Below, one piece after another: positions 3-62,827 of a stretch of DNA of 64,000 nucleotides. The notes under the pieces are model-generated. The model saw nothing but the letters and a program-made list of their open reading frames with translations. It searched no databases and had not been told where the DNA came from. The translations under genes and the position numbers were made by a program. Source of the stretch: a virus; IMG/VR virus record IMGVR_UViG_3300029908_000007, positions 64,001 through 128,000 of that record. One strand, written 5' to 3'. Numbering within the stretch: position 1 is the first letter of the stretch; each line of letters opens with the position of its first letter.

Positions 3-476
3 GGTGACAAAAATGGTAATTATTCCGAGGTCTTCAGAAGTGTTATCCTGGGTAGAGCCACCGGTAATCTGATTAAACTCTACTCCGAAACCAGCCTTCA
101 TTTCTACCCCAGCGACCGCAGGATCCTATATAAAGCCAACTCGATTCGTAGTAGGAAGGGAATCAGCGATGTCCAAGAATTGGCTGAAGCCATCAATGAA
201 AGTTTTGTCGCCGACGCCGCTGAAGGCCTTAACGTTCCAAAGAACAAGATCAAGGCTGCGGAATTACAGGAACTTTTAAACGCAGCTTCCATTGTTTCTG
301 TGGAACAGACCATTAACGAAGAAAACTTCAGCGCCTACGATCTCACTCCCGATAACAGTGCCAATGCCGAAGAAGCCATGCTTCACAAAGAAATGAACGC
401 AAACGTCAAAAACTTAATCGATCAGCTCCCTCCTTTACATCAAAAAGTACTAAAACTCAGAGGCGTCACTTTTTAG
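3..476 (+). CDS. Sigma-70-family RNA polymerase sigma factor, 5'-partial; ends after region 4.1
   Basis: Frame is open from nt 3 (GDKNGNYSEVFRSVILGRATGNLIKLYSETSLHFYPSD..., region 2.3/2.4-like). Then 'VQELAEAIN' (3.1-like), 'SIVSVEQ' (3.2-like) and 'LIDQLPPLHQKVLKLRG' (4.1-like), followed by a stop. Confidence 0.65.
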   Translation, partial: GDKNGNYSEVFRSVILGRATGNLIKLYSETSLHFYPSDRRILYKANSIRSRKGISDVQELAEAINESFVADAAEGLNVPKNKIKAAELQELLNAASIVSVEQTINEENFSAYDLTPDNSANAEEAMLHKEMNANVKNLIDQLPPLHQKVLKLRGVTF

Positions 477-505
477 TTGACAAAGGCGCAGCGGCCTGGT
501 AGAGT
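477..505 (+). promoter_or_regulatory. Sigma70-type promoter TTGACA-17-TAGAGT
   Basis: Consensus -35 with 17-nt spacer, followed by AGGAG RBS and ATG at 524. Confidence 0.7.
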
Positions 506-523
506 ATCTGACAGGAGATCTAT

Positions 524-703
524 ATGAGCAAAGAAAAACTAATCAGTGCCACTAAATACGTGGAATCACTTAAGAATAAGCTTGCCGATGGCGTTCCCGC
601 CAAACATCGAACTCGTGCTGCCCAATACAAAGCTTTTTTGGAAAAGGAATTGAAGGCCGCTAGTACGAAGATTGAAAATCTTAAGATAACCGTTACCAAA
701 TAG
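524..703 (+). CDS. Small basic hypothetical protein (59 aa, not in ORF track)
   Basis: MSKEKLISATKYVESLKNKLADGVPAKH...TVTK*; AGGAG RBS; fills the gap between neighbours. Confidence 0.75.
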   Translation: MSKEKLISATKYVESLKNKLADGVPAKHRTRAAQYKAFLEKELKAASTKIENLKITVTK

Positions 704-710
704 GAGAGCT

Positions 711-1034
711 ATGCTAGACAAACCCACTTCTTTTAATGGTAAACTCGTATTAGAGGTTTATGTCCACACAGAAGTTCGTAGCAATACGACCAAGGGTTGG
801 ACTGGCGTTGTTCAAAAGAATAACTTAAAAGGGCTCAAAGTCTTGGTTGACGCCAATCTCCCAAATGGAAGTTCGGTTTCCGCTGGCTCTGTGGCTTGGA
901 TTAAAGAAGATCTTTTGCACTCATCTCCTTGGGCCAAAGATGTGCGTAAATGCGATTTCATCCCTGGTGAATTCATTTTGGTTAACATGAACGAAGTGGA
1001 ATTTGTGAGTCCTCCCGAAGGGACTGTTGCTTGA
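711..1034 (+). CDS. GroES/Cpn10-like co-chaperonin (putative)
   Basis: 107 aa; 'FNGKLVLE...TTKGW...LKVL...VSAGSVAWIK...GEFILVNMNEVEFV' follows the GroES strand pattern. Confidence 0.5.
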   Translation: MLDKPTSFNGKLVLEVYVHTEVRSNTTKGWTGVVQKNNLKGLKVLVDANLPNGSSVSAGSVAWIKEDLLHSSPWAKDVRKCDFIPGEFILVNMNEVEFVSPPEGTVA

Positions 1035-1225
1035 GAGTTGGAAGATATTTCCGAATAGGGCGCCTTGCAATCGTAGTAGGACCTTATGCTGCTTGGGGTT
1101 CTATAGAAGGCTCCTGCGGTTGTAAGATCTGGGGATTGGGGCGCTTCGAAATCACATGGTTTGACAAAACCTGTAAATGCCGAGCTTGTGGTAGCCATAT
1201 ATGCAAATGTAAGGATGCGGTATGA
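1031..1225 (+). CDS. Small Cys-rich hypothetical protein
   Basis: Overlaps both neighbours by 4 nt; CxC and CxxC pairs. Confidence 0.5.
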   Translation: MRVGRYFRIGRLAIVVGPYAAWGSIEGSCGCKIWGLGRFEITWFDKTCKCRACGSHICKCKDAV

Positions 1226-2193
1226 CGGTACTTTATTTGGGAGATCCTCACGTAACCGTTTCCAACCTAGCAGAATCCGAAAGACTTCTAGTTTATGTCG
1301 AATCTTTGGGGTCTTCTGACCTTACTTTGGTTATCTTAGGTGATCTTACGCATACTCATGCCAACGTGAGAGTTGAGGTCCTGGAATTTTGGAATCGATG
1401 GTTTGCAAAATTAAATGACCTATTTAAGAAAGTTATCGTATTAGTCGGGAATCATGATCAAATCGGCGATTATAAATCTAATTCCCATTCATTAAGTGTT
1501 TTTAATGGAATATACGAAAAAGTTTTGATAGTATCATCGCCAATAAATCTCGGCATTTTTGGTTATATTCCCTATATTCACGACAAAAAACTGTTTACAG
1601 TACAAGCTAACAAACTGTGCTCTAATGGCGCTAAAGTAATTGTCGCCCACGCCGAACTGGATGGAGCTAAATACGAAAGTGGAATGCCCGTCGTAGACGG
1701 CGTTAAATATCAAGACATCAACGCTTCATTAATTATTTCGGGCCATTATCATTCCAGGCAACGTTTTGGAAATGTGATTTATCCCGGAACAGCCCGTTGG
1801 TTAACCGCAGCCGACAAAAACGAACCTAAGGCCCTTTGGTTCGTGAACTTTGACGATGAAGGCAAAATCCTCTCCGAACAATTCCTTGACACCTCCCATG
1901 TCTGCGTTCCCATCTATGCCTACCAATACAAAGAAGGCGAAGCCGAACCCGCTATTCCGGAAGGTAGCCGCGCATCTGTAGAACTTGTTGGCTCTTCTAT
2001 TTGGGTTTCTCAACAGAAAGCCAAATTCAAAGGCAAAGCCTCGGTCAGTTCTAAGATCACAGATAAAGCCCGTCCCGAGAACCGCAAGACCGGGAATAGT
2101 CTCGCACATTTTGTTACCAATGTGTTCGAGGTTTCTGGCGGCCTAAAGAAAGAAAAGATGATCGACTTTATGAAGGAACTTGGAGTGTTATGA
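1222..2193 (+). CDS. SbcD/Mre11-like (T4 gp47-like) nuclease
   Basis: Metallophosphoesterase motifs GDPH, LGD, GNHD, AH, GHYH; YPG; near an SbcC gene. Confidence 0.9.
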   Translation: MTVLYLGDPHVTVSNLAESERLLVYVESLGSSDLTLVILGDLTHTHANVRVEVLEFWNRWFAKLNDLFKKVIVLVGNHDQIGDYKSNSHSLSVFNGIYEKVLIVSSPINLGIFGYIPYIHDKKLFTVQANKLCSNGAKVIVAHAELDGAKYESGMPVVDGVKYQDINASLIISGHYHSRQRFGNVIYPGTARWLTAADKNEPKALWFVNFDDEGKILSEQFLDTSHVCVPIYAYQYKEGEAEPAIPEGSRASVELVGSSIWVSQQKAKFKGKASVSSKITDKARPENRKTGNSLAHFVTNVFEVSGGLKKEKMIDFMKELGVL

Positions 2194-2546
2194 GCGAAGA
2201 TATTTTAAAGCAACTCAAAGATATGGCCCAGATGTCTGCTATTACCGGAAAAATCTCTACGGTTCAGGAACGCAATCTAAAAATGTACCCACTTGTATTT
2301 TTTGATGGTGTGGAGCGGGTTGAAATCAACTACGATCTATCCCCCATCAGATCCTCCGAAAACGGCAGCGATTTGGTTGCAGCCAAGTCATTTGTGGCCT
2401 ATGACATCAAAACCGATGGTAGAGAAGTTATGAATTTAAATAGACGATGTGCTGCCATTGACAGAGCCGTTGCTACCCTGCTTTGGTCTGGGATCCACGT
2501 AGAAGTATTCGTTGATGGTGTTCAAAAATATGGAGGCGCTAAATGA
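2190..2546 (+). CDS. Hypothetical protein
   Basis: ATGA-coupled ORF within the operon. Confidence 0.75.
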   Translation: MSEDILKQLKDMAQMSAITGKISTVQERNLKMYPLVFFDGVERVEINYDLSPIRSSENGSDLVAAKSFVAYDIKTDGREVMNLNRRCAAIDRAVATLLWSGIHVEVFVDGVQKYGGAK

Positions 2547-3274
2547 GCTACGAAGGAACCCTGACCGTCCTCAAAGATGGCAAAACCACCGATCTCACTC
2601 CCAAAGAGCTTCAACAAATCGAAAAATTTAAAGAAGCCGGTTTGCCAGGCATAACTACTGTTTCTGACGTTGGAATGACCAAAGCCTTGGATCTCTATTT
2701 AGGTGGTAAGACCTACCACGAAATCTCTAAAATTCTTAGCATGAAAAAAGACGCGCTTTTGTATTTCGCCCAAAAATTCAATTGGTATGGAACCAAGATG
2801 GAACAATTGGAGATCTTAGACGCCAACCTTAAAGAACGCATTTTACACGCCAATCTCGTAAATCAAGACTTTGTATTACAAATCCAACAGTTCTTCTTAC
2901 ATAAAATCGGTAGGAAGATTAACCGCTACTTAGCTACTGGAGATGAAACAATTGCCGCAAAAATCGATTCTAAGGATATCGACAGATATCAAAAGGCTGT
3001 GGAATTATTAGATAAACTGACTACCGACAAGAAACTGAATCCCCGAAATCCATCGGTAGGTTTTAACCTCGGAGAAGGCGGCGTTGACGTTAAACGCGTT
3101 GGTGAGAACGAAATCACCATTACCCCTAGGAATAAGACTGTTGGTGAAATGCTCAATGAATTAGCCAACACAAAACGCAAAGAAGAAGCTCCCAAAGATA
3201 GTTATGATATAGTAATGGAAGAGTCTAAAAACGAAGAAACAGAACAGAAAGAAGAGAAAGAAGATGAAGAATAA
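2543..3274 (+). CDS. HTH protein, terminase-small-subunit-like N-terminal domain
   Basis: 'ALDLYLGGKTYHEISKILSMKKDALLYFAQKFNW' HTH pattern; helical middle region; acidic tail. Confidence 0.45.
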   Translation: MSYEGTLTVLKDGKTTDLTPKELQQIEKFKEAGLPGITTVSDVGMTKALDLYLGGKTYHEISKILSMKKDALLYFAQKFNWYGTKMEQLEILDANLKERILHANLVNQDFVLQIQQFFLHKIGRKINRYLATGDETIAAKIDSKDIDRYQKAVELLDKLTTDKKLNPRNPSVGFNLGEGGVDVKRVGENEITITPRNKTVGEMLNELANTKRKEEAPKDSYDIVMEESKNEETEQKEEKEDEE

Positions 3275-4241
3275 AATGACCAGGGCAATTGAAAGCCGCT
3301 TAGCACCTATTTTTAAGAAAATCGAGTCCAGTCTCGGGGTAAAATCCAAGATCGCCCTTGGTTTGACAGCCCTATTGGCTATTGCCATCGCAATTGGCTC
3401 TAATATGCAACCCAATGATGTGACGGCTAGCAGTGTTGCAATTACTAATATCGCTGAAAACAGCGGTGGAACTGGGATTGTGCTTAGTTCCAGCGAGACA
3501 TCGAGCACGATTCTCACCAACTCCCATGTCTGTCACGTCGTCGAACACGGCGGTAAAGTTACTGGCAAGAATGGTCAATTTCTGGTCGCAACCTATAAGC
3601 ATTCCCAAGCCCACGATCTTTGCCTGATCACTGTAGATGGCAACCTCAAAGCTTTCACTAAGATCTCCAATCGCGCCCCTGTGCCATTTTACGAACCCGC
3701 TACGGTCAGCGGACATCCAGCTCTCTACCCCAACGTTATCACCAATGGTCATTTCAGTGGTCGCCGAACCATTGCTGTTATGAAGGGCATTAAGCCCTGC
3801 ACCGAGGAGCAAGCCAACGGACCCGCAGCTCTGTTATGCGCTTTGGTGGGTGGGATTCCTCAAATCGTTCAATACGACGCCACTTTAGTAACTGCAACAA
3901 TTATGCCAGGAAGTAGCGGTTCAGGAGTTTATAATGGAGACAAAGATCTCTCAGCTGTGGTTTTTGCTGGCAGCGGAGACATCGGCTACGGATGGACAGT
4001 TCCCTATGAATCAATGCGCAATTTCTTGGATCTCGAAGCTCGCACCCTAGAAGCGATTCGCCCAGACAATGCCGTTGATTTCTTGGGTCAGTTCGGTAAA
4101 AGGGACGCAGCCAATGAGAACAACTTGATTAAAAAACTTAAGGAAACCTGCGCTGGCGAAAATCGTGCCAAACTCCTTGAAACTTGTAATCTCGTTGATC
4201 AAGATCTTGTTGCCGACTCAAGCATGATTTGGTTCAAATAA
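3264..4241 (+). CDS. Membrane-anchored trypsin-like (S1) serine protease
   Basis: N-terminal TM helix; GTG, LTNSHV (His), HDLC (Asp), PGSSGS (Ser). Confidence 0.85.
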   Translation: MKNKMTRAIESRLAPIFKKIESSLGVKSKIALGLTALLAIAIAIGSNMQPNDVTASSVAITNIAENSGGTGIVLSSSETSSTILTNSHVCHVVEHGGKVTGKNGQFLVATYKHSQAHDLCLITVDGNLKAFTKISNRAPVPFYEPATVSGHPALYPNVITNGHFSGRRTIAVMKGIKPCTEEQANGPAALLCALVGGIPQIVQYDATLVTATIMPGSSGSGVYNGDKDLSAVVFAGSGDIGYGWTVPYESMRNFLDLEARTLEAIRPDNAVDFLGQFGKRDAANENNLIKKLKETCAGENRAKLLETCNLVDQDLVADSSMIWFK

Positions 4242-4489
4242 TGCCCTTGTTCTTCTATCTCTGTTCTTGTGGTCTGTCTTCTTCCAAGTTCTTCCGGGTG
4301 GTGGCTTCGGCCCCACTCGGAATTACTTGTAAGTGTGGACTGGAGATGAAGAAACAACTCAAGGGACCTAGCAACAATAGTGTAATTATTGTGGATAATG
4401 GAATTCAATCAAAAGCCACGGAAGTCGATCTCGCCGTAGTTGCCTCGAACGAGGAAAATAGTACCAAAGATTTTAGAGAAAAACCTTGA
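4241..4489 (+). CDS. FmdB-like zinc-ribbon protein
   Basis: MPLFFYLCSCG...CKCGLEMKKQL; TAATG coupling supports a start at 4241. Confidence 0.65.
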   Translation: MPLFFYLCSCGLSSSKFFRVVASAPLGITCKCGLEMKKQLKGPSNNSVIIVDNGIQSKATEVDLAVVASNEENSTKDFREKP

Positions 4490-4514
4490 CTTTTTAAAGT
4501 CCCTCTGATATCCT
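4486..4514 (+). promoter_or_regulatory. Promoter TTGACT-17-TATCCT (leaderless geometry)
   Basis: -10 ends 7 nt before the ATG at 4522; no RBS. Confidence 0.6.
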
Positions 4515-4521
4515 GTAATCG

Positions 4522-6693
4522 ATGCTAAAACTCAAAAAACTTACATTTTCTAATATAGGCCGTTTCACAGACGAGCAAAACGTTGACTTCACTAAACTCG
4601 GCTCCCTCGTGCAAGTAGACGCACAAAACAATAATACCGGTGGCAGCTCAGGTTCTGGGAAAAGTACCATTTTTAATGGGCTAGATTGGCTTCTCGGTCT
4701 ATCCGACATCAGCACTTCTACTTTACAATCTCGTCTAACCAAAAGTCATATCTCGGTTTCCGGTGAGTTCGATTGGGATGGGAAATCCGTTACAATAACT
4801 AGAAATCGAAAACTATCTATCGTCATAGATGGCAACGAAACGACAGGCTCTAGTAAGATCAGCGAAGAGAAGCTCGATGAGATCCTGGGAATGCCCAGGA
4901 ACCTATTCCGGCCTCTCCTTCATAAGCGCCAGGGAGAAACTGGCTTCTTTTTGGGCCTAACCCCGGCTAAGATGAATGATTTCCTAGTTGATACCTTAGG
5001 TCTGTCCCAAATCCGCTCTAAAGTCGACGTAATCGACGGCAAGACCAAAGAATTGGGTCTGGCAAAGATAGGTGCGCAAACCGGCCTTGCAGTCGCCCAG
5101 GCCAGTCTAGAGGCTAATAAACGGGCCTTAGAGGCAGTAGGAGACGAACCCGTGACTAGCGTACACCAGGACCTCGTAGAAGGCTGGAAGCTGCGCTGTG
5201 TAGCCGCTAATACCGACCTAATGACCGCCAAAGACCGGCAGGCCATTGAGAAGTCTCAATTGGAAACCAAAAAGCCAAAACTAGTCATTAATCCTTTTTC
5301 AGCAGCGGCTTTAGAAGCAAACCAAATGCGAGAAAAAGAACTCAACAGATTGATTAACGAATCTCTCTATCAGGAAAGAGATCGTCAGACTCTTGTAAAT
5401 AAGGAGATCTCCAAGCTAAAACTGGACCTATCTACCCAGGTCGCGACCATCAATGCCAGGACTAGTAAAGAAGTCGCCATTCTTAACGCTAAACTGTCGG
5501 AGACCGCTATGGCCATCCGTCTTGGAGCGATGTCTAAAGAGGAGGCCATTAAAATTGCCTCTAAAATTAAGACCGTAAGAGCTGGAACCTGCTATACCTG
5601 TAATCAAGTATGGGTTTCTGCTTCAGAAGAAGAGAGGTTATTGGCTAGTCTCGGCGAGCACAAGGCTAAGATAATCTCCGCAAAAGATGCGGAGAATAAT
5701 GCTATTGAACTCCGCACCGCAATTGCCTATATCCAGGATAGTTCCAGTAAAGATATCGAAGGCCTTAATAAGGATTATTCACTTAATATTCAGGGATTGA
5801 CGGAACAAGCCAAACCACGAATTCCTGCCGAGATCCCCGGTCTAAGAGCTGATTTGGCCAACATCATTGATTTGATCCAGAAAGAAAAAGTCAAGGAAGC
5901 CGCTCATAACGAAGAACAGAACAAGACCAACAATCAGACCATGTCTGCTTTCTTCGCCGACCAAAAAGTTTTGGCCGCTAGACATCAAGAAGAACTCCAA
6001 GTTGTTAATAAAGAACTTGAAGAAGCTCGAAGTCAGTGTGAACGGCTTAGCTCCGAACTCAGGAATCACGAAACCAATCTGGCCAAACATAAACAGGTTC
6101 TGAAGAGTCTGACGGATGCCCAAAACGAACAGACCTCAAAAGTAGAACAAATGACCCTAAAAGTAGGTCAAGTCGAAGAGAAGCTAGTCATGGCCGAGGA
6201 AGTCAAGCGCTGTCTTAAATCCTATCTGAGTTGCAGTTTTGATGATGCCTTGGATAGTATCAGCGATTCCGCGACGGCCATCCTACGGGCGGTTCCAACT
6301 ATGGCAAACGCAACTATCCGTTTGGAAGGAACAAAGGAAACCGGCGCAGGAGCCATCAAAGATCAAATCAATGCCTGTATTGATAACGATGGAGAAATTG
6401 GAATTCCTATCAAAAGTCTTTCCGGTGGCGAGCGCTCAGCCGTAGATCTGGCCATCGATCTCGCTGTAGGCAATTTGATTCAAGAAAAAGCCAATAAAGG
6501 AATCGATGTCATGATCCTAGATGAGCCCTTTAATGGATTTGACAGCATTGGTATCGAGCATTCCCTTGAAATGATTAGGACTTTTGCCGTCGACAAGAAG
6601 ATCTTGATCGTCGAACACGATGGCGTCGCAAAAGAGTTTATTCAGGACCGCATTACCGTAGTCCGCGACGGAGAAATTAGTAGTGTAAAATAG
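4522..6693 (+). CDS. SbcC/Rad50-like (T4 gp46-like) ATPase
   Basis: Walker A GSSGSGKST, coiled coils, Zn hook CYTC, signature LSGGE, Walker B ILDEP, H-loop VEHD. Confidence 0.93.
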   Translation: MLKLKKLTFSNIGRFTDEQNVDFTKLGSLVQVDAQNNNTGGSSGSGKSTIFNGLDWLLGLSDISTSTLQSRLTKSHISVSGEFDWDGKSVTITRNRKLSIVIDGNETTGSSKISEEKLDEILGMPRNLFRPLLHKRQGETGFFLGLTPAKMNDFLVDTLGLSQIRSKVDVIDGKTKELGLAKIGAQTGLAVAQASLEANKRALEAVGDEPVTSVHQDLVEGWKLRCVAANTDLMTAKDRQAIEKSQLETKKPKLVINPFSAAALEANQMREKELNRLINESLYQERDRQTLVNKEISKLKLDLSTQVATINARTSKEVAILNAKLSETAMAIRLGAMSKEEAIKIASKIKTVRAGTCYTCNQVWVSASEEERLLASLGEHKAKIISAKDAENNAIELRTAIAYIQDSSSKDIEGLNKDYSLNIQGLTEQAKPRIPAEIPGLRADLANIIDLIQKEKVKEAAHNEEQNKTNNQTMSAFFADQKVLAARHQEELQVVNKELEEARSQCERLSSELRNHETNLAKHKQVLKSLTDAQNEQTSKVEQMTLKVGQVEEKLVMAEEVKRCLKSYLSCSFDDALDSISDSATAILRAVPTMANATIRLEGTKETGAGAIKDQINACIDNDGEIGIPIKSLSGGERSAVDLAIDLAVGNLIQEKANKGIDVMILDEPFNGFDSIGIEHSLEMIRTFAVDKKILIVEHDGVAKEFIQDRITVVRDGEISSVK

Positions 6694-6696
6694 TTC

Positions 6697-6725
6697 TTGA
6701 CTTTAGGGAGGGCTTGTTGTAGATT
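6697..6725 (+). promoter_or_regulatory. Promoter TTGACT-17-TAGATT
   Basis: Intergenic; precedes AGGAG RBS and a small-gene cluster. Confidence 0.65.
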
Positions 6726-6742
6726 AGCTGGCAGGAGACGAT

Positions 6743-6949
6743 ATGGAACGACAATGTCAATGCTCATGCAATTGTAGTGTTTGGACGACAAATAGCAACA
6801 GTATTTGTGGTTATTGCGATGATTGTTATAAGAAAAACTCTCGAACTTTCTCAGAGCAAATGAAAGAAGCATCGCTGACAATGGAAGCCAGAATTGAAGG
6901 TCTAGAAGCCGCCGTAAAACGTCTTAACCGAGAACTGGGGCTAAAATGA
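6743..6949 (+). CDS. Cys-rich plus coiled-coil hypothetical protein
   Basis: RBS AGGAG; CxCxCxC...CxxCxxC. Confidence 0.65.
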   Translation: MERQCQCSCNCSVWTTNSNSICGYCDDCYKKNSRTFSEQMKEASLTMEARIEGLEAAVKRLNRELGLK

Positions 6950-7353
6950 TTCTACTTGAACTTACAACTAAAGAAGCCGAATTCATTAGGGAAGTCATTG
7001 CTTTGGAGAAAAACTCTGTGACTAATTCCAAATTGGAATGGGCAGAAAAGGAAAGAAAAACAGGTATTTGTAATTCTTTTTTAGCTAAAGTAGATCACGC
7101 TTCGGAGCCACAAAAAGATGTTATGATTACCGCCAACGATCTCTTTCTCCTGATCTCCCAGGCCAAACGGGAATATCTGAGTTTAAATAGCGGATTGCAT
7201 ATTTCCGGCATAGAGGTTGACAAAAAAGACCTCCCACATATTAGTGTGACCAACGCCTTATTGTTGTTTTTGAATGGGGAAAACTTACTGAAAAAAATGG
7301 TAAGATTTGATATAACCGACCAAAGCGGTCAATACGAGGAGCTAGAAGAATAA
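6946..7353 (+). CDS. Hypothetical protein
   Basis: ATGA-coupled ORF. Confidence 0.7.
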   Translation: MILLELTTKEAEFIREVIALEKNSVTNSKLEWAEKERKTGICNSFLAKVDHASEPQKDVMITANDLFLLISQAKREYLSLNSGLHISGIEVDKKDLPHISVTNALLLFLNGENLLKKMVRFDITDQSGQYEELEE

Positions 7354-7354
7354 T

Positions 7355-7567
7355 ATGTTTGATACACATAAACTGAATGAAGCCGGATTTGCAGCGGTCA
7401 AAACGCTAAAAACGAATATGGCCGCAGCTGTCCAAGAAGCACTTTCCCTTATGCCAGAAGGTCGAGAAAGGTCTATTTTTGTAACCAAGATCGAAGAAGC
7501 AATGTTTTTTGGAACCAAAGCCGTTGCTTCCGATCGCAACTTTCACACAGAAGTAGTTAAATATTAA
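7355..7567 (+). CDS. Acb2/Tad1-like helical-hairpin protein (candidate immune-signal sponge)
   Basis: 'F.tH.L....V..lK......PEGRERSIFVTKIEEAMFFGTKAVA' resembles the R-E-x3-TK(L/I)EEA hairpin of Tad1/Acb2-related proteins. Confidence 0.55.
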   Translation: MFDTHKLNEAGFAAVKTLKTNMAAAVQEALSLMPEGRERSIFVTKIEEAMFFGTKAVASDRNFHTEVVKY

Positions 7568-7577
7568 GGAGAATAAT

Positions 7578-7778
7578 ATGGAAAGACAGAAAGAATTATT
7601 TTTAGTTTGGCAAGGTGGAGCAGACGAACAGTTTTATAATCAATACGAGTCATTGGTAGATGCTGTTAGCTCAGAAGAAGAAGGTACTGAAATTTTTGAA
7701 GCAAAACTCACTTCTCTTGGTAGTTATAGGCTAGTGACTAAGATGATAAAAGAAAAGAAATCAAAGAAGGCAGAATAA
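7578..7778 (+). CDS. Hypothetical protein
   Basis: AAGGAG RBS. Confidence 0.7.
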   Translation: MERQKELFLVWQGGADEQFYNQYESLVDAVSSEEEGTEIFEAKLTSLGSYRLVTKMIKEKKSKKAE

Positions 7779-7779
7779 C

Positions 7780-8082
7780 ATGGCAAAATTCAAAAAAGAA
7801 CCCCTCACAGAACTACAGAAAATTGCAAAGAAAATCGGACCCGATGCCGAAGACGTTCTAGCCGAACTCGAAGCCATGGATGTGCCCGGTCTTAACAAAC
7901 GCATTGCTCAGGCAAACCAGGCAATATCTGATACAAAGGAAGAACTGGATAACAATCCCGCCTATCAGCAAGTTCTGGCCGATAAGAAACTGCTCGGCAG
8001 CGGTTTCAAAGAAGTGAAAGCGCGGCAGAACGCGATTATTGCTATCTCGGTTCAACTCAGGAAGGACAAGGGAGAAGCATGA
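7780..8082 (+). CDS. Coiled-coil hypothetical protein
   Basis: Operon packing; heptad pattern. Confidence 0.7.
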   Translation: MAKFKKEPLTELQKIAKKIGPDAEDVLAELEAMDVPGLNKRIAQANQAISDTKEELDNNPAYQQVLADKKLLGSGFKEVKARQNAIIAISVQLRKDKGEA

Positions 8083-8408
8083 AAACCGCAGTCGAATCTA
8101 ATGCAGAGACATTGGTGAGTAGAGGAGAGCGATTTAGTCTAGAAACCCTTATGTCTATTATAGAAGATAGTGTATGTAGATCTGTAGACGATGGCGAATT
8201 TGAAACTACTGTTGGTACATATAATTTTATCGCTTCTGATGTAGCTCTGGCTCAAAAAATACTAAAGAATTTGGGATACGATGTTGGAGATGGTGGTGAT
8301 TATCTAAGAATAAACTGGTCGAGCCGCACAGTTCCGAAATCCCAATCCTGTGGACCCAGCTTCTGTGAAGACTGTAATTGTGGTAAGAAAGAGCAAGTTG
8401 AATGCTGA
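8079..8408 (+). CDS. Hypothetical protein
   Basis: GGAG RBS; ATGA overlap. Confidence 0.65.
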   Translation: MKTAVESNAETLVSRGERFSLETLMSIIEDSVCRSVDDGEFETTVGTYNFIASDVALAQKILKNLGYDVGDGGDYLRINWSSRTVPKSQSCGPSFCEDCNCGKKEQVEC

Positions 8409-9063
8409 ACGCGTGCTAGCCCTAGACGTCAGTACGAAAACGGGATGGGCGGCTGCGATCAGCTCCTCTCAGGGCATTGAGTTATTGGACTACGGAACCA
8501 TTCCACAGATTCATAAACCCGATGGTGACTATCCTGGCGTCTACGTTGACTGGTCAATACTGTGTTTCAAAGAGATCAAAAAAATGATAGATAAGCTCAA
8601 ACCCCAAGTTTTAGTGATAGAAGAGACAAGTAAGGGTAGTAAGAACGCCATGAGCCAAAAGGTCCTTGAGTACATTCATTACAATTTGGCCTCCTATATT
8701 AAGGAATCTGGGATTAGGTCTGTCTATGTCCTAACAGAACAGTGGCGCCGTGAACTTGGGTGCGTTATGAACGACGCCGAAAAAGCAAAAAATAAGCAGG
8801 TCAGAGATTACAAGAAAAAGAACAAAACCAGCATATCTTATGATATAAACGGGAAACGTAATGGGTTGGTTGGCCGAAAACACGTGAATATTCGTAGGGT
8901 GAGCGAGATCTTTGCGGGACAACTAAAAGCTCCATTAAAACGCAAGGATGAAGATTTGGCTGATGGGCTCGGACTTTTAGCCTGTTACCACAACCGCAGA
9001 CTTAAAACCAACGGGAATATCCCCGAAATGACAGTCGAAGAGATTATTAAGGACAACCAATGA
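8398..9063 (+). CDS. RuvC-like Holliday junction resolvase
   Basis: VLALDVSTKTGWA, LVIEE, W-R/K helix, DEDLADGLGL; likely TTG start at 8398. Confidence 0.8.
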   Translation: MNAERVLALDVSTKTGWAAAISSSQGIELLDYGTIPQIHKPDGDYPGVYVDWSILCFKEIKKMIDKLKPQVLVIEETSKGSKNAMSQKVLEYIHYNLASYIKESGIRSVYVLTEQWRRELGCVMNDAEKAKNKQVRDYKKKNKTSISYDINGKRNGLVGRKHVNIRRVSEIFAGQLKAPLKRKDEDLADGLGLLACYHNRRLKTNGNIPEMTVEEIIKDNQ

Positions 9064-9071
9064 TTTTTCCC

Positions 9072-9100
9072 TTGACAAGTTCCCAAAACAGTGTTATATT
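9072..9100 (+). promoter_or_regulatory. Promoter TTGACA-17-TATATT with extended -10
   Basis: Near-consensus and intergenic, followed by AGGAG. Confidence 0.75.
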
Positions 9101-9119
9101 TACCCCAGGAGCATAAACT

Positions 9120-10049
9120 ATGGCTAAAAATATTTGGGACGACGAACCCTTTCGTGATGGAGCGCCCACACTTCAAAACGGCGAGTGGCAGGATCAAGAA
9201 ACCTACACCCCGGCTCCTGATAATGTAATCAGGGAAGCTCGCGCTATTCAGGCCAAAACTCAGGAAGAATACGATGTTGAAGAACTTACAGATCAAGTAG
9301 CCGAAGATGGCGAGAACGAAGACGAAGATTTCACAGAAATGCTATCCGATGCCAGACTTCGCCTAGAGCAGGGTAAGCTATACGAGATGATCATCAAGCA
9401 CGATCTATTTAAGGATGTAGAAGCCGATCCCCGTGCTGTTAAAATCGTTACCAAACAAATGCAGAAAATAGCCAAAGAACTCATGGAAACCATGCTTGGT
9501 ATGCGTCAAACCGTTCAAGCCGCGCCTTCCATGATTAGTTCTCCCTTCAATAGCCTTGAAGTCGACATTCTAAAGAAACTAGCCAGTGCTGCCTCCAAAG
9601 GCGCCACAGAGACCGAAGAAGCCCAGGATGAGATGCCGGAACCCGCCGCATCTCCCAAGAGGAAGACACTTAATACCATTGGAAGCAGCCGACCTCAGCC
9701 TAAGCCCGCTCCTAGACCAATTGCTAAGAAACCCGAGCCCCTTAAGCGTCAGGCTAAGCCAAAGCTAGAATTACCACCTGAGTTTGAGCCCGATTATGTT
9801 CCCCTGGATAAGCCTATCCATAAGATGAGCGCCCAGGAACTTGCAGAACGTGACAAACAAGCCTTGGATCGCCAAAGAGGTCGTAAATCCGCGCCTCCTC
9901 CTGACAAAGCCCCTATGCCGGATTACCAAACCCAGGAAATGCTAGCAATGTCGCAGGCTTCTAGGGCAACTGGCGGAGTAGGTGGAATGACCGGCCTAAA
10001 TGGAAAGTTGTCACAGCTAATTATAGCTGGCGCAATCAAGAAAGTATAA
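9120..10049 (+). CDS. Hypothetical protein (acidic N-terminus, Pro/Lys-rich linker)
   Basis: Long ORF with RBS. Confidence 0.8.
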   Translation: MAKNIWDDEPFRDGAPTLQNGEWQDQETYTPAPDNVIREARAIQAKTQEEYDVEELTDQVAEDGENEDEDFTEMLSDARLRLEQGKLYEMIIKHDLFKDVEADPRAVKIVTKQMQKIAKELMETMLGMRQTVQAAPSMISSPFNSLEVDILKKLASAASKGATETEEAQDEMPEPAASPKRKTLNTIGSSRPQPKPAPRPIAKKPEPLKRQAKPKLELPPEFEPDYVPLDKPIHKMSAQELAERDKQALDRQRGRKSAPPPDKAPMPDYQTQEMLAMSQASRATGGVGGMTGLNGKLSQLIIAGAIKKV

Positions 10050-10065
10050 AGTATAAAGTAGAAAT

Positions 10066-10299
10066 ATGGCTAAGAAAAAATTTAAAGTCAGTCCCGATGG
10101 TGTTCCACACAAACCCACTTGTGATTGTTTTCAATGTTTTCCCGAAGAATCAGAATTAGAAACAAAAACTAATAAAGCTCTTGAACTCGCTGAAGCCAAT
10201 GCTAAGGCTATTCAAGAACTCGAAGTTAAAATTCAAAAAACTTTTTTAGAGTACAGTCACACGCTGGCAACTCTAAAAGACCGCAACCGTCTGCGATAA
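10066..10299 (+). CDS. Hypothetical protein (HxxxCxCxxC plus coiled coil)
   Basis: ORF within the operon. Confidence 0.6.
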   Translation: MAKKKFKVSPDGVPHKPTCDCFQCFPEESELETKTNKALELAEANAKAIQELEVKIQKTFLEYSHTLATLKDRNRLR

Positions 10300-10322
10300 T
10301 AACCACAAACAAGGAGAAACGA

Positions 10323-10982
10323 ATGTCTGAAGAAAATAAGAAAACCGCCACAGAACGACTGGAAGACCTGGAAGGAGCGATGTCCCAAGTAGGCCAAGCG
10401 CTTTCCTCACTGGATCCCCTAATTAGGGACCTCGGTGGAGTCAAGGAAGCTCTTAAGCTTCTCAATAATAAATTGGATGCAGTTGTCAAGGCGATCTCTG
10501 CTGGAAGTCCTTTGACCGATGAAACCCTAAACAAGCTCATGACAGCCGCAAATGCCGAAGAACTTGCTGCCAAAGTAGCAGCCATGGTTGCTCAGGGATT
10601 GCTCGTTGCTTCTGACACGGTAACCAATGATAGCTTTGTGGTTATCAACGAAGCCGATGCCGCTGGCACTGTTGTAAACCCACGTATGCAGTTCTTGGTT
10701 TCCGCACTTCAGATCGAAGAAGTTCGCACCAAGCTCGGCGGCTCCAAGGTTGGTGACAACATTCCTGTAGGAGATAAAGGTGCTTCTATCAACGTGCTGG
10801 AATCGTATACGATCGCGATTCCAAAGGCTCCAGAAGCCGCTGCTCCTGGCGAAGACGCCAATGAAGCCGGTCCCGCCGCAACTCCAGCTGCTGAAGCCGT
10901 TCCTGCTCCCGCTGCAACGGACGCCGCACCAGCTACTACCGATGCAGCTCCAGCAACCGATTCAACAGCTGCAAGCGCTTAA
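10323..10982 (+). CDS. Coiled coil plus FKBP/GreA-C-like domain, Ala/Pro/Thr tail
   Basis: AAGGAG RBS; 'DTVTNDSFVVI...KLGGSKVGDNIPV...INVLE' pattern. Confidence 0.45.
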   Translation: MSEENKKTATERLEDLEGAMSQVGQALSSLDPLIRDLGGVKEALKLLNNKLDAVVKAISAGSPLTDETLNKLMTAANAEELAAKVAAMVAQGLLVASDTVTNDSFVVINEADAAGTVVNPRMQFLVSALQIEEVRTKLGGSKVGDNIPVGDKGASINVLESYTIAIPKAPEAAAPGEDANEAGPAATPAAEAVPAPAATDAAPATTDAAPATDSTAASA

Positions 10983-10990
10983 GGAATACG

Positions 10991-12601
10991 ATGACGCGTA
11001 GAAGACATACCCTAGCTAGAGAAAAAAGAACCGAGTTGACCCCAACAGGTGTCGAAATTCTCAACGCGTATTTATCTATTATTGAAGATAGTGGTAAGTA
11101 CCCTAGCAGACCAGAAATGAACCTGCTAGGGTACAACAGGGACGCCATAAGAGATAATTTTGGATCATTGGAGTCTTTAAAGGAATACGTAGTCAAAAAC
11201 TATCCCGAAGTAGTTGAAAACATTACCGAAGAAAAAATCAAGAATAGTAACAGTGCTCAGGATCTAGCCAAGCTTATCAAAAATCACAAGAGATTTGTAG
11301 TTACTACTGCCATTAATGGCGCACCTGTTCGTGAGGGCTTTTTAAAGAACTTAAGAGTTTACTGTAAAAAGATGAAGGCGTTGCTTTTGATCTTGCCCGC
11401 TGGGAACGAAGTAACGGATATGGACGCCGATCTCGCGGACGATGCCTGGGTTTTTGATAAAACCTATCTGAATTCAAATATCTATATCAGTGCTATCAAA
11501 GTTCCTCCCAGGAGCGTCAATCCCCTCACTTCCTTGGGTAGAATTGGACAAAGAAATGGCAGTACTATAATCGCCAGCCCAAAACAGTTCATGGAACCCG
11601 TTGCAGTTGGTGATAGCAAGATGCCACACATTATGATGTCTACAGGCGCTATCACCGAGCCCCGCTATCAGAAGAAGGGCGTTTATGACAAAAACGGCCT
11701 AATCGCCCTACACGACCATGTTTTGGGCGCCGTTGTGGTAGAAATTGAAGACGATAAATTCTACCACTTTACTCAGATTCAAGCCGAAGAATCTGGGGCT
11801 TTTGTAGAACGATGTTTGTATGTCAAGAACGGCAAGATTGGCAAGCTCAACCCATCCCACATGGTTGTTGGAGACCGCCACGTAACGGAAACCGATCCAA
11901 CCGCTGCCAAAGCCTGGGATGAGATCTCCGAATTCTGTGGTTATCCGACTTTGGTAGAACACGACTTCCTTTCTGGGGTTTTCGGCAACCATCACGAAGA
12001 ACATAATCAAATCATTAGAGCGGCTTTGTCGGCCATGAATAAGTTGAACATGGAAGAAGAATTTAGAGCTTGCGGTAAGGAAATTGACAGGCTCACAGAA
12101 AAACAAGATATGATTATGGTGGCCTCAAACCATCACGATTTTGTCAACAAGTATATTACATATGGAACCTATCACAAGGATCCACAAAATCTGGATTTTG
12201 CTTCTAAGCTGATTTCTCCAATGATTCGAGGCGAAGACCCGGTTCGTTACGCCCTAGAAAAATTGATTGGACTTAAAAGACCGCATAGAGTAAAATGGCT
12301 AAAGAGAGATGAAAGCTACAATGTTGCTGGAATCGAACTAGGTGCCCACGGAGATAAGGGCGCCAATGGATCCAAGGGATCTCCAAATACCTTGGAAAAA
12401 GGGTACGGGAATTGTGTCGTCGGACACAGCCACACACCCAAGATTATAAGAGGATTCTGGCAAGTGGGAACTAGTACTTATTTAAAGCTGCCCTATACTC
12501 AGGGAACTTCGAGTTGGTGTCATACCGTCTGTTTGGTATACGATAACGGGGCTAGGCAGCAAATTTTCTCAATCGGCGGACGCTGGAGACTTAATGGGTA
12601 A
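10991..12601 (+). CDS. Large calcineurin-like metallophosphoesterase with N-terminal HTH-like region
   Basis: GDRH, HD, SNHH, HGD, GHSH motifs in the C-terminal half. Confidence 0.75.
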   Translation: MTRRRHTLAREKRTELTPTGVEILNAYLSIIEDSGKYPSRPEMNLLGYNRDAIRDNFGSLESLKEYVVKNYPEVVENITEEKIKNSNSAQDLAKLIKNHKRFVVTTAINGAPVREGFLKNLRVYCKKMKALLLILPAGNEVTDMDADLADDAWVFDKTYLNSNIYISAIKVPPRSVNPLTSLGRIGQRNGSTIIASPKQFMEPVAVGDSKMPHIMMSTGAITEPRYQKKGVYDKNGLIALHDHVLGAVVVEIEDDKFYHFTQIQAEESGAFVERCLYVKNGKIGKLNPSHMVVGDRHVTETDPTAAKAWDEISEFCGYPTLVEHDFLSGVFGNHHEEHNQIIRAALSAMNKLNMEEEFRACGKEIDRLTEKQDMIMVASNHHDFVNKYITYGTYHKDPQNLDFASKLISPMIRGEDPVRYALEKLIGLKRPHRVKWLKRDESYNVAGIELGAHGDKGANGSKGSPNTLEKGYGNCVVGHSHTPKIIRGFWQVGTSTYLKLPYTQGTSSWCHTVCLVYDNGARQQIFSIGGRWRLNG

Positions 12602-12977
12602 AACCGAAGATCTTGCAAAGCTAGGTGTTGCAGCAAAAGATATCGAACAAAGAATGACATCCATTAAAGCTAATATGGATACTATTAAAAAAGAACTCGA
12701 TTTTTTAACTACGGTAGAAGAACAGCTAGATAGCAATGTAAAGTATCTCAAAAAGGTAAAGATCGTCGCACTAGCCAGTGAATACAAAAAAGCCAGAGAA
12801 GACCTCAAAAAGACTAAGACTCGCTTGGGCCAGATCAAAGGCGACTTAGGCAATAATGAAAGAGCATATAAAGAGCTGGAAGCAATGCTCAAAAAGAACA
12901 AGGAGGTCTATGATAAACTCTCAAAAACAAGTGATAACAACGTATTACAAGGGAAGTTTGGCCGACGCAATGGTTAA
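12594..12977 (+). CDS. Coiled-coil hypothetical protein
   Basis: Continuous heptads. Confidence 0.7.
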   Translation: MGKTEDLAKLGVAAKDIEQRMTSIKANMDTIKKELDFLTTVEEQLDSNVKYLKKVKIVALASEYKKAREDLKKTKTRLGQIKGDLGNNERAYKELEAMLKKNKEVYDKLSKTSDNNVLQGKFGRRNG

Positions 12978-13179
12978 AGAATTGATGATGAAAAGAGTTA
13001 TGGAAGAACCCGACTTCGTTAAATGCTCGAAGTATGGGAATTCATTGGTTAAATATCTTTCCGGCAATAGCGGTGAGATCAAGGATAAGACCATTGCTAG
13101 ATTACTAATGATCGCCGAAGACGACGTCGAAAGAATTTATCAAGAAGCTGTTGACATTTTAAGACGCGGTGTGGTATAG
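12970..13179 (+). CDS. Stand-alone sigma-region-4.2-like HTH protein (69 aa)
   Basis: 'IKDKTIARLLMIAEDDVERIYQEAVDILR' matches the sigma 4.2 pattern (xxEIAxxLxIsxxxVxxIxxxAlxKLR). Confidence 0.55.
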   Translation: MVKELMMKRVMEEPDFVKCSKYGNSLVKYLSGNSGEIKDKTIARLLMIAEDDVERIYQEAVDILRRGVV

Positions 13180-13180
13180 T
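13151..13180 (+). promoter_or_regulatory. Promoter TTGACA-18-TATAGT with extended -10 (leaderless geometry)
   Basis: -10 ends 6 nt before the ATG at 13187. Confidence 0.7.
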
Positions 13181-42235: not shown

Positions 42236-42265
42236 TTGACATCGCAATCTTTACTGTGATATAGT
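42236..42265 (+). promoter_or_regulatory. Promoter TTGACA-18-TATAGT with ATCGCAATCTTTA embedded
   Basis: Consensus elements; late-like motif at 42241-42253. Confidence 0.65.
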
Positions 42266-43646: not shown

Positions 43647-43654
43647 TAAAGATT
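43647..43654 (-). promoter_or_regulatory. Candidate late-promoter motif AATCTTTA (leaderless geometry)
   Basis: 5 nt before the ATG at 43641. Confidence 0.6.
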
Positions 43655-55673: not shown

Positions 55674-55714
55674 TAAAGATTGCGATTTTCGGTCTTATGA
55701 TATACTATATCATA
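55674..55714. promoter_or_regulatory. Bidirectional control region: late motif (55674-55688, -) plus 9-1-9 palindrome TATGATATA-C-TATATCATA (55696-55714)
   Basis: Directly visible between two divergent genes. Confidence 0.7.
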
Positions 55715-57468: not shown

Positions 57469-57476
57469 TAAAGATT
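57469..57476 (-). promoter_or_regulatory. Candidate late-promoter motif AATCTTTA
   Basis: In a 22-nt gap, 13 nt before the ATG at 57455, with GAGGT RBS. Confidence 0.6.
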
Positions 57477-62757: not shown

Positions 62758-62827
62758 TGGTCTTTAAATACTAAAAGACCATATAGGTAAAGATTCCAAT
62801 CTTTGACCCTACCCCGGCGTTATATCA
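62758..62827 (-). promoter_or_regulatory. TGATATA (62821-62827), AATCTTTA (62788-62795) and an 8-bp leader hairpin (62758-62781)
   Basis: TGGTCTTT-N8-AAAGACCA inverted repeat between the motif and the ATG at 62739. Confidence 0.6.

Follow-up and report, generated by a model that had tools for sequence, protein, structure and literature searches.

In a 64,000-nucleotide stretch of a phage genome (hereafter the window; bases 64001-128000 of the 162,308-bp IMG/VR virus record IMGVR_UViG_3300029908_000007, whose completeness is estimated at 98%), we find a sigma factor of the primary type that ends before region 4.2 and, 12.5 kb downstream, a separate gene for a 69-amino-acid protein that very probably resembles the missing region. 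The truncation of the sigma factor is near certain, and the clearest result of our sequence comparisons is that the two protein families appear to complement each other in curated models of whole sigma factors. We propose that they are the two chains of one sigma factor, divided between regions 4.1 and 4.2, and that they act jointly; we give this proposal an even chance of being correct.

The original prediction for this DNA took the open reading frame (ORF) at positions 3-476 to be sigma-like. The frame is real, but it represents only the last 157 residues of a 351-amino-acid protein whose gene straddles the start of the window. As the DNA upstream (L001) shows, the gene begins 580 nucleotides before the window, directly preceded by a helicase gene, and runs for 351 codons from ATG to TAG (L001:921-1976; genome 63421-64476). 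The protein contains regions 1.2, 2 and 3, the 3.2 linker and region 4.1, and its C-terminus (...LPPLHQKVLKLRGVTF, then TAG) lies a few residues past the 4.1 helix. Judged by E-value only, it is a divergent member of the sigma-70 family. It is matched by PHROG 351, 'RNA polymerase sigma factor' (phrog_351, E 1.9e-9), and by 24 NCBIfam sigma models at E<=1 (best 3e-10), all 24 of them far under their full-length cut-offs (best 39.7 bits versus a cut-off of 384). The matches to RpoS and SigBFG begin at residue 144, and those to RpoD_Cterm, cyanoRpoD and FliA_WhiG cover residues 261-347. A Pfam scan of the protein gave no sigma match at E<=1, and no curated cut-off of Pfam or NCBIfam was reached. 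When a profile of 16 sequences of the family was compared with the PDB, SigA/RpoD chains were found at E 2e-6 over regions 2-3, with sigma residues 136-211 aligned to SigA region 2, and FliA was matched over profile positions 147-340; hhalign additionally matched the protein to RpoD 374-420.

Structure prediction agrees with this assignment. An AlphaFold2 (AF2) model of the sigma factor (predicted local distance difference test, pLDDT, 79) begins with an N-terminal helical part, followed by helices of domains 2 and 3 (helices at 230-296 among them), a low-confidence linker (297-315) and two last helices (316-334 and 338-346). Foldseek places it with probability 1.0 on full-length Thermus SigA, and not on a minimal sigma factor. 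In the SigA profile alignment, the tyrosine of the region 2.3 motif Y-x-x-W-W is invariant in the phage family, and the W-W pair stands opposite V-F, a replacement that would fit a non-standard -10 specificity. A six-frame search of the whole phage genome with Pfam Sigma70_r2 and Sigma70_r4 returned nothing: both proteins are too divergent for these models, and the genome holds no second, complete sigma factor.

The phage protein follows primary and primary-like sigma factors (RpoD/SigA, FliA/WhiG) in region order and fold through region 4.1, but, unlike them, it carries no region 4.2 on the same chain. Its end, L-P-P-L-H-Q-K-V-L-K-L-R-G-V-T-F, corresponds to the canonical 4.1 pattern L-x-x-R-E-x-x-V-L-x-L-R-F-G of these sigma factors, which the family motif L-P-x-x-x-R-K-V-L-R-L-K-G also fits. 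The chain stops 3-5 residues later, leaving each sigma model 36-50 positions before the model end. About 480 homologues were found in databases, the best 120 of them 302-355 amino acids long. All 16 aligned homologues share a common end column, including that of Myxococcus phage Mx1 (OR576727.2), and in all 51 complete IMG/VR loci (32-72% identity) the frame ends 0-9 residues after ...RKVLRLKG(I/V)xx; the C-terminal K..L.L.G motif is invariant. These findings bear out the earlier claim that the sigma factor lacks region 4.2, and none of the 51 homologues keeps that region. Read-through or frameshifting that would restore region 4.2 was considered and rejected: read-through of the sigma stop adds 16 codons before another stop, and the other two frames encode no helix-turn-helix.

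The small protein consists of a family-specific N-terminal segment (residues 1-32) and a helix-turn-helix with an acidic recognition helix (residues 33-65). The original prediction had described it as mostly a 4.2-like helix-turn-helix; the 69-amino-acid ORF is real and the helix-turn-helix is present, but only residues 33-65 (37-69 of the database form, P0121) are 4.2-like. An exhaustive profile search collected 268 clusters of relatives at 50% identity, nearly all of them stand-alone proteins of about 60-100 amino acids, with no sigma-fused form among the best 150 of the 268 representative clusters. When the window's own protein was searched directly against Pfam, PDB sequences and NCBIfam, the results were of no use, and Pfam gave no hit at E<=1. 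Among 100 relatives, Pfam matches were found to Sigma70_r4 in 19 (E<=1), to PhyR_sigma-like in 4 and to GerE in 5. One relative, P0159, passes the gathering cut-off of Sigma70_r4 (PF04545; 25.6 bits versus 24.1), at model positions 17-50 only, which are the helix-turn-helix part; every Sigma70_r4 match in the small family begins at position 17 or later, so that the 4.1 helix (positions 1-16) is missing from all of them. The nearest ESM Atlas clusters are viral proteins of 69-79 amino acids, 63-83% of whose members carry Sigma70_r4, and Sigma70_r4 clusters account for 4 of the 10 atlas fold rows. Through the family profile, P0159 and these clusters, the earlier assignment of the small ORF to sigma region 4.2 is upheld: the family matches sigma region 4, not an unrelated helix-turn-helix family. 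No IMG/VR relatives of the distant family members P0159 and P0202 were found.

In sigma-70, the residues R584-E585-R586-I587-R588 contact the -35 box. The matching start of the recognition helix in the small family (columns 54-58 across 100 relatives) reads E-E-E-V-E, with column charges of -0.39, -0.57, -0.85, 0 and -0.45; conserved glutamates stand here in place of basic or polar DNA-contacting residues. The hydrophobic pattern of the helix and its closing K-L-R are retained, and the median isoelectric point of the family is 5.2. Because the recognition helix is charge-reversed relative to the sigma-70 arginines, the small protein is unlikely to read a -35 element. The acidic helix start noted in the original prediction is kept across the 100 relatives.

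How the two pieces relate can be read from whole-sigma models, in which we compared the last position matched by the phage sigma factor with the first matched by P0159. The sigma factor ends and P0159 starts at 129 and 132 in TIGR02937 (length 165), at 186 and 189 in FliA_WhiG (length 224), at 190 and 193 in SigBFG (length 227), at 199 and 202 in NF005413 FliA (length 241), and at 125 and 126 in TIGR02985 (length 162). In all five curated models, P0159 follows the sigma end by 1-3 positions and reaches within one position of the model end. The window's own proteins behave in the same way on E. coli FliA, of which the sigma factor aligns with residues 21-198 and the small protein (37-73 of the 73-amino-acid form) with residues 201-238.

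The idea that the two proteins act together draws weak support from their co-occurrence in syntenic relatives and from a predicted complex. Each of the 19 long genomes from IMG/VR in which the sigma gene occurs contains exactly one strong match to the small gene (E 1e-22 to 1e-32), and in 18 of the 19 it lies 10-15 kb downstream of the sigma gene on the same strand. For the complex, ESMFold2 was given sigma residues 298-351 and the alignment of the small protein, in three runs with three controls. The score was 0.57 (0.56-0.58 over the three runs) versus 0.00 for the best control, and the runs share at least 86% of their contacts, with a partner pLDDT of at least 77. In calibration, 58 of 80 solved complexes and 2 of 110 mismatched pairs attained the mark; only 7 of the 80 solved complexes had scores of 0.60 or under, as did both passing mismatches. 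The predicted complex of the sigma C-terminus and the small protein is graded as 'weak support', and the pass may reflect likeness to solved sigma-4 structures. We infer the binding of the small protein to the sigma factor and to the beta-flap, as well as the promoter served; a partner for the sigma factor is suggested because its two 4.1 helices and invariant terminal residues have no obvious fold alone.

The promoters of the genome offer a possible role for such a pair. Three near-consensus host-type promoter-like sites lie in the plus-strand replication and repair block that holds both genes (Table 1), among them the one that had been predicted after the sigma-like ORF and that we recover as a consensus match. 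A different motif, AATCTTTA, stands out from genome counts: 29 copies are observed versus 12.7 expected, and 21 of the 29 fall in the intergenic 6.6% of the genome, where the motif is about 25-fold over-represented. Each of these 21 points at a gene 3-126 nucleotides away, always within the virion-gene blocks. No position from -45 to -12 upstream of the motif is conserved, and the motif thus has no -35 partner. It is similarly enriched in two close relatives, and we regard it as a candidate late promoter. Two copies of AATCTTTA lie inside the spacer of a TTGACA...TATAGT-type site.

We therefore consider the following course of events, each step of which is conditional. The 351-amino-acid, primary-type sigma factor would bind the host core RNA polymerase, which we take as its target because no phage RNA polymerase was detected, and its divergent region 2 would read a short -10-type element. 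The 69-amino-acid protein would supply the missing 4.2 helix-turn-helix behind its conserved 35-residue N-terminal segment and would pack on the orphan 4.1 helices, so that the two together occupy the beta-flap tip, the usual seat of sigma domain 4. The charge-reversed recognition helix would probably read no -35 box, and the holoenzyme would use promoters without one, for which AATCTTTA before virion genes is the candidate. The factor would in this way switch on late genes; we propose such a switch because both genes lie in an early/middle plus-strand block with host-type TTGACA/TATAAT promoters. Put more broadly, a primary-type sigma factor may have been split inside domain 4, the detached region 4.2 losing its DNA reading and gaining an N-terminal docking segment, so that domain 4 would be left as a flap-binding or regulatory module only, perhaps a landing pad for a phage activator, and Mx1-like phages, a very large group with a global distribution, would use this arrangement as their standard means of late transcription. 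This broader scenario we advance tentatively, at somewhat under an even chance.

Several observations weigh against joint action. The sigma assignment of the small protein comes from its relatives, because the window's own protein has no Pfam or NCBIfam match. Its N-terminal half equals the helix-turn-helix in conservation (D19 and S29 at 99%; motif D-F-I...K..N-S-L) and shows no likeness to region 4.1 when the two families are compared by hhalign; this conservation is a feature without explanation under a split sigma factor. The atlas fold matches cover residues 8-73, and the small protein may accordingly form a complete domain of the sigma-4 type instead of exactly filling the gap left by the sigma factor. 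Modelled alone with AF2 (7 sequences), it gives a poor prediction (pLDDT 61), whose best VIA-align matches are uninformative: FF domains and homeodomains do not exceed Z 6, and a SigI6 domain 4 has Z 4. The two genes are never adjacent or fused, and their co-occurrence is weak evidence because the 19 genomes are all syntenic relatives, in which any two core genes would co-occur. P0202 is encoded by a divergent small gene on a rearranged 44.8-kb contig (L083, Logan SRR25158356), where a GroEL-like gene precedes it and dnaE follows immediately, and no sigma gene lies within 10 kb on either side of it. Finally, the exact AATCTTTA motif was not enriched in more distant relatives, and nothing links the sigma factor to this motif.

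The main rival to a joint sigma factor is that the small protein is a free mimic of sigma domain 4, which would sit on the host beta-flap or on host sigma domain 4 and block -35-dependent host transcription in the manner of T4 gp33 or AsiA, while the truncated sigma factor works alone. A stand-alone, sigma-4.2-like protein with an acidic helix that is unlikely to bind DNA would suit this role, as would the distance between the genes and fold matches that span most of the protein, as expected of a self-sufficient domain; T4 gp33 itself mimics sigma-4 on the flap and represses basal transcription (PMC2988020). The sigma factor, however, retains two well-conserved 4.1 helices and the invariant K..L.L.G, for which neither a fold nor a role is obvious if no partner exists, and we consider the free mimic unlikely. 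Still less probable, in our view, is a reading in which the small protein has nothing to do with sigma function and regulates by ordinary DNA binding through a helix-turn-helix of the LuxR/GerE or sigma-4 type, while the sigma factor is a -10-only one with a vestigial region 4.1. The best PDB profile match of the small family is indeed the NarL DNA-binding domain (E 0.06), and the GerE matches of five relatives point in the same direction, but the DNA-contact positions R584, R586 and R588 of sigma-70 are conserved glutamates in this acidic family, and in P0159 sigma models score 25.6 bits versus 14.8 bits for LuxR models. That the truncation is an artefact of assembly, a pseudogene or recoding that restores region 4.2 is scarcely conceivable; nothing was found in favour of this reading, and it is already refuted because 51 of 51 independent metagenomic loci, as well as the cultured Mx1, share one end point, and because no frame past the sigma stop holds a helix-turn-helix.

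Two-subunit sigma factors as such are already known. In T4, gp33 is a flap-bound 'sigma-4 mimic', and gp55 plus gp33 have been termed a 'split sigma' (PMC2988020). The analogy with T4 drawn by the original prediction would be one of function only: like gp55, gp33 and the gp45 clamp, the phage pair comprises a sigma factor without a -35 reader and a separate small protein, here proposed to act at the sigma domain 4 site, with a short -35-less late promoter motif (here the candidate AATCTTTA) and two genes far apart in the genome. In T4, the host sigma factor reads the early genes, and a short -10-only element serves the late ones, which resembles the promoter layout described above. The analogy does not extend to the proteins themselves. 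The present sigma factor is far larger than gp55, a minimal sigma-2-like protein, and keeps regions 1.2, 2, 3, 3.2 and 4.1; the small protein appears by sequence to be a homologue of sigma-4, which gp33 is not; and no clamp-binding tail is seen in the pair. The gp33 and gp55 families were not among the matches listed from Pfam and PHROG scans.

Other two-piece sigma factors are SPO1 gp33/gp34, SigO-RsoA of Bacillus subtilis and Sig7-Sig8 of Tn916 (bioRxiv 10.64898/2026.10.01.756105), and MtvS1/MtvS2 of Francisella has been proposed as another (PMC13627669). As in SigO-RsoA and Sig7-Sig8, whose two polypeptides both associate with RNA polymerase (bioRxiv 10.64898/2026.10.01.756105), sigma functions would be divided here over two chains. 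Those sigma factors are group-4-like and cut between regions 2 and 4; their genes are neighbours, and a -35 box is read by their region 4; the phage sigma factor, in contrast, is of the primary type and cut between regions 4.1 and 4.2, with genes 12.5 kb apart and an acidic 4.2 piece. None of these two-piece sigma factors combines a primary-type chain that is cut at the 4.1/4.2 boundary with a genuine, though acidic, homologue of 4.2 encoded elsewhere, and neither such a cut nor any paper on this family was found in the literature searched.

Mx1 is the only cultured phage with both genes in the phage collection searched. Its sigma factor (WNM70309, 'putative RNA polymerase sigma factor') has 335 amino acids, is 32% identical over 96% of the length and ends at the same point, and the order helicase, sigma factor, phosphoesterase is common to both phages. 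The text of the Mx1 genome announcement makes no mention of a sigma factor (PMC10720576). The small gene of Mx1 encodes 80 amino acids (L003:3013-3255, about 157455-157697 of OR576727.2, minus strand); the GenBank record leaves it unannotated, and its neighbours are a hypothetical gene for a coiled-coil protein and dnaE. A coiled-coil ORF precedes the small gene in all contexts seen, namely Mx1 and the metagenomic contigs L077, L078, L081 and L083, and in the window its last bases are shared with the beginning of the small gene (Table 1). This coiled-coil protein may be a third partner. It has weak matches to DksA-like_N (E 0.004) and GreA_N (E 0.11), amid dozens of generic coiled-coil matches. 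Just downstream of the sigma gene, the window encodes a metallophosphoesterase and an SMC/SbcC-like ATPase, probably an SbcCD-type nuclease pair, whose order is repeated in contig L081 (Pfam Metallophos and SbcC_Walker_B) and in Mx1.

Table 1. Positions of the features discussed in the text, counted from the first base of the window.
Feature	Position	Strand	Remarks
Sigma gene, C-terminal 157 codons	1-476	+	End of region 2, region 3, 3.2 linker, region 4.1; without region 4.2
Sigma-70-type promoter-like site	477-505	+	TTGACA-17-TAGAGT, TG extension; consensus match only; begins at first base after sigma stop
Metallophosphoesterase gene	1222-2193	+	323 amino acids
SMC/SbcC-like ATPase gene	4522-6693	+	723 amino acids
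Sigma-70-type promoter-like site	9072-9100	+	Near-consensus, TG-extended; in plus-strand replication/repair block
Coiled-coil ORF	12594-12977	+	127 amino acids; stop overlaps small-gene ATG by 8 nucleotides
Stand-alone sigma-region-4.2-like protein	12970-13179	+	69 amino acids; database form P0121, 73 amino acids from TTG at 12958
Sigma-70-type promoter-like site	13151-13180	+	TTGACA-18-TATAGT, TG extension; overlaps small-gene end
AATCTTTA, candidate -35-less phage promoter	34464-34471	-	Example; 28 nucleotides upstream of minus-strand gene
AATCTTTA, further copy	42246-42253	+	
AATCTTTA, further copy	43647-43654	-	
AATCTTTA, further copy	55674-55681	-	
AATCTTTA, further copy	57469-57476	-	
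AATCTTTA, further copy	62788-62795	-	

Sigma domain 4 has two jobs, anchoring sigma to the beta-flap and reading the -35 box. A natural cut of this domain, minus its DNA-reading chemistry, would separate the two and could show what role region 4.2 has besides -35 recognition. The pair is easily overlooked, as the annotation of Mx1 does not list the small gene, and Mx1 with Myxococcus xanthus provides a culturable system in which to study it. The truncated type of sigma factor is also present in hundreds of relatives of Mx1. If our proposal is true, the pair would represent a third, independent route to a two-piece sigma factor, besides T4 gp55/gp33 and SigO-RsoA, and would account for late-gene control in a large group of uncultured phages of 150-175 kb.

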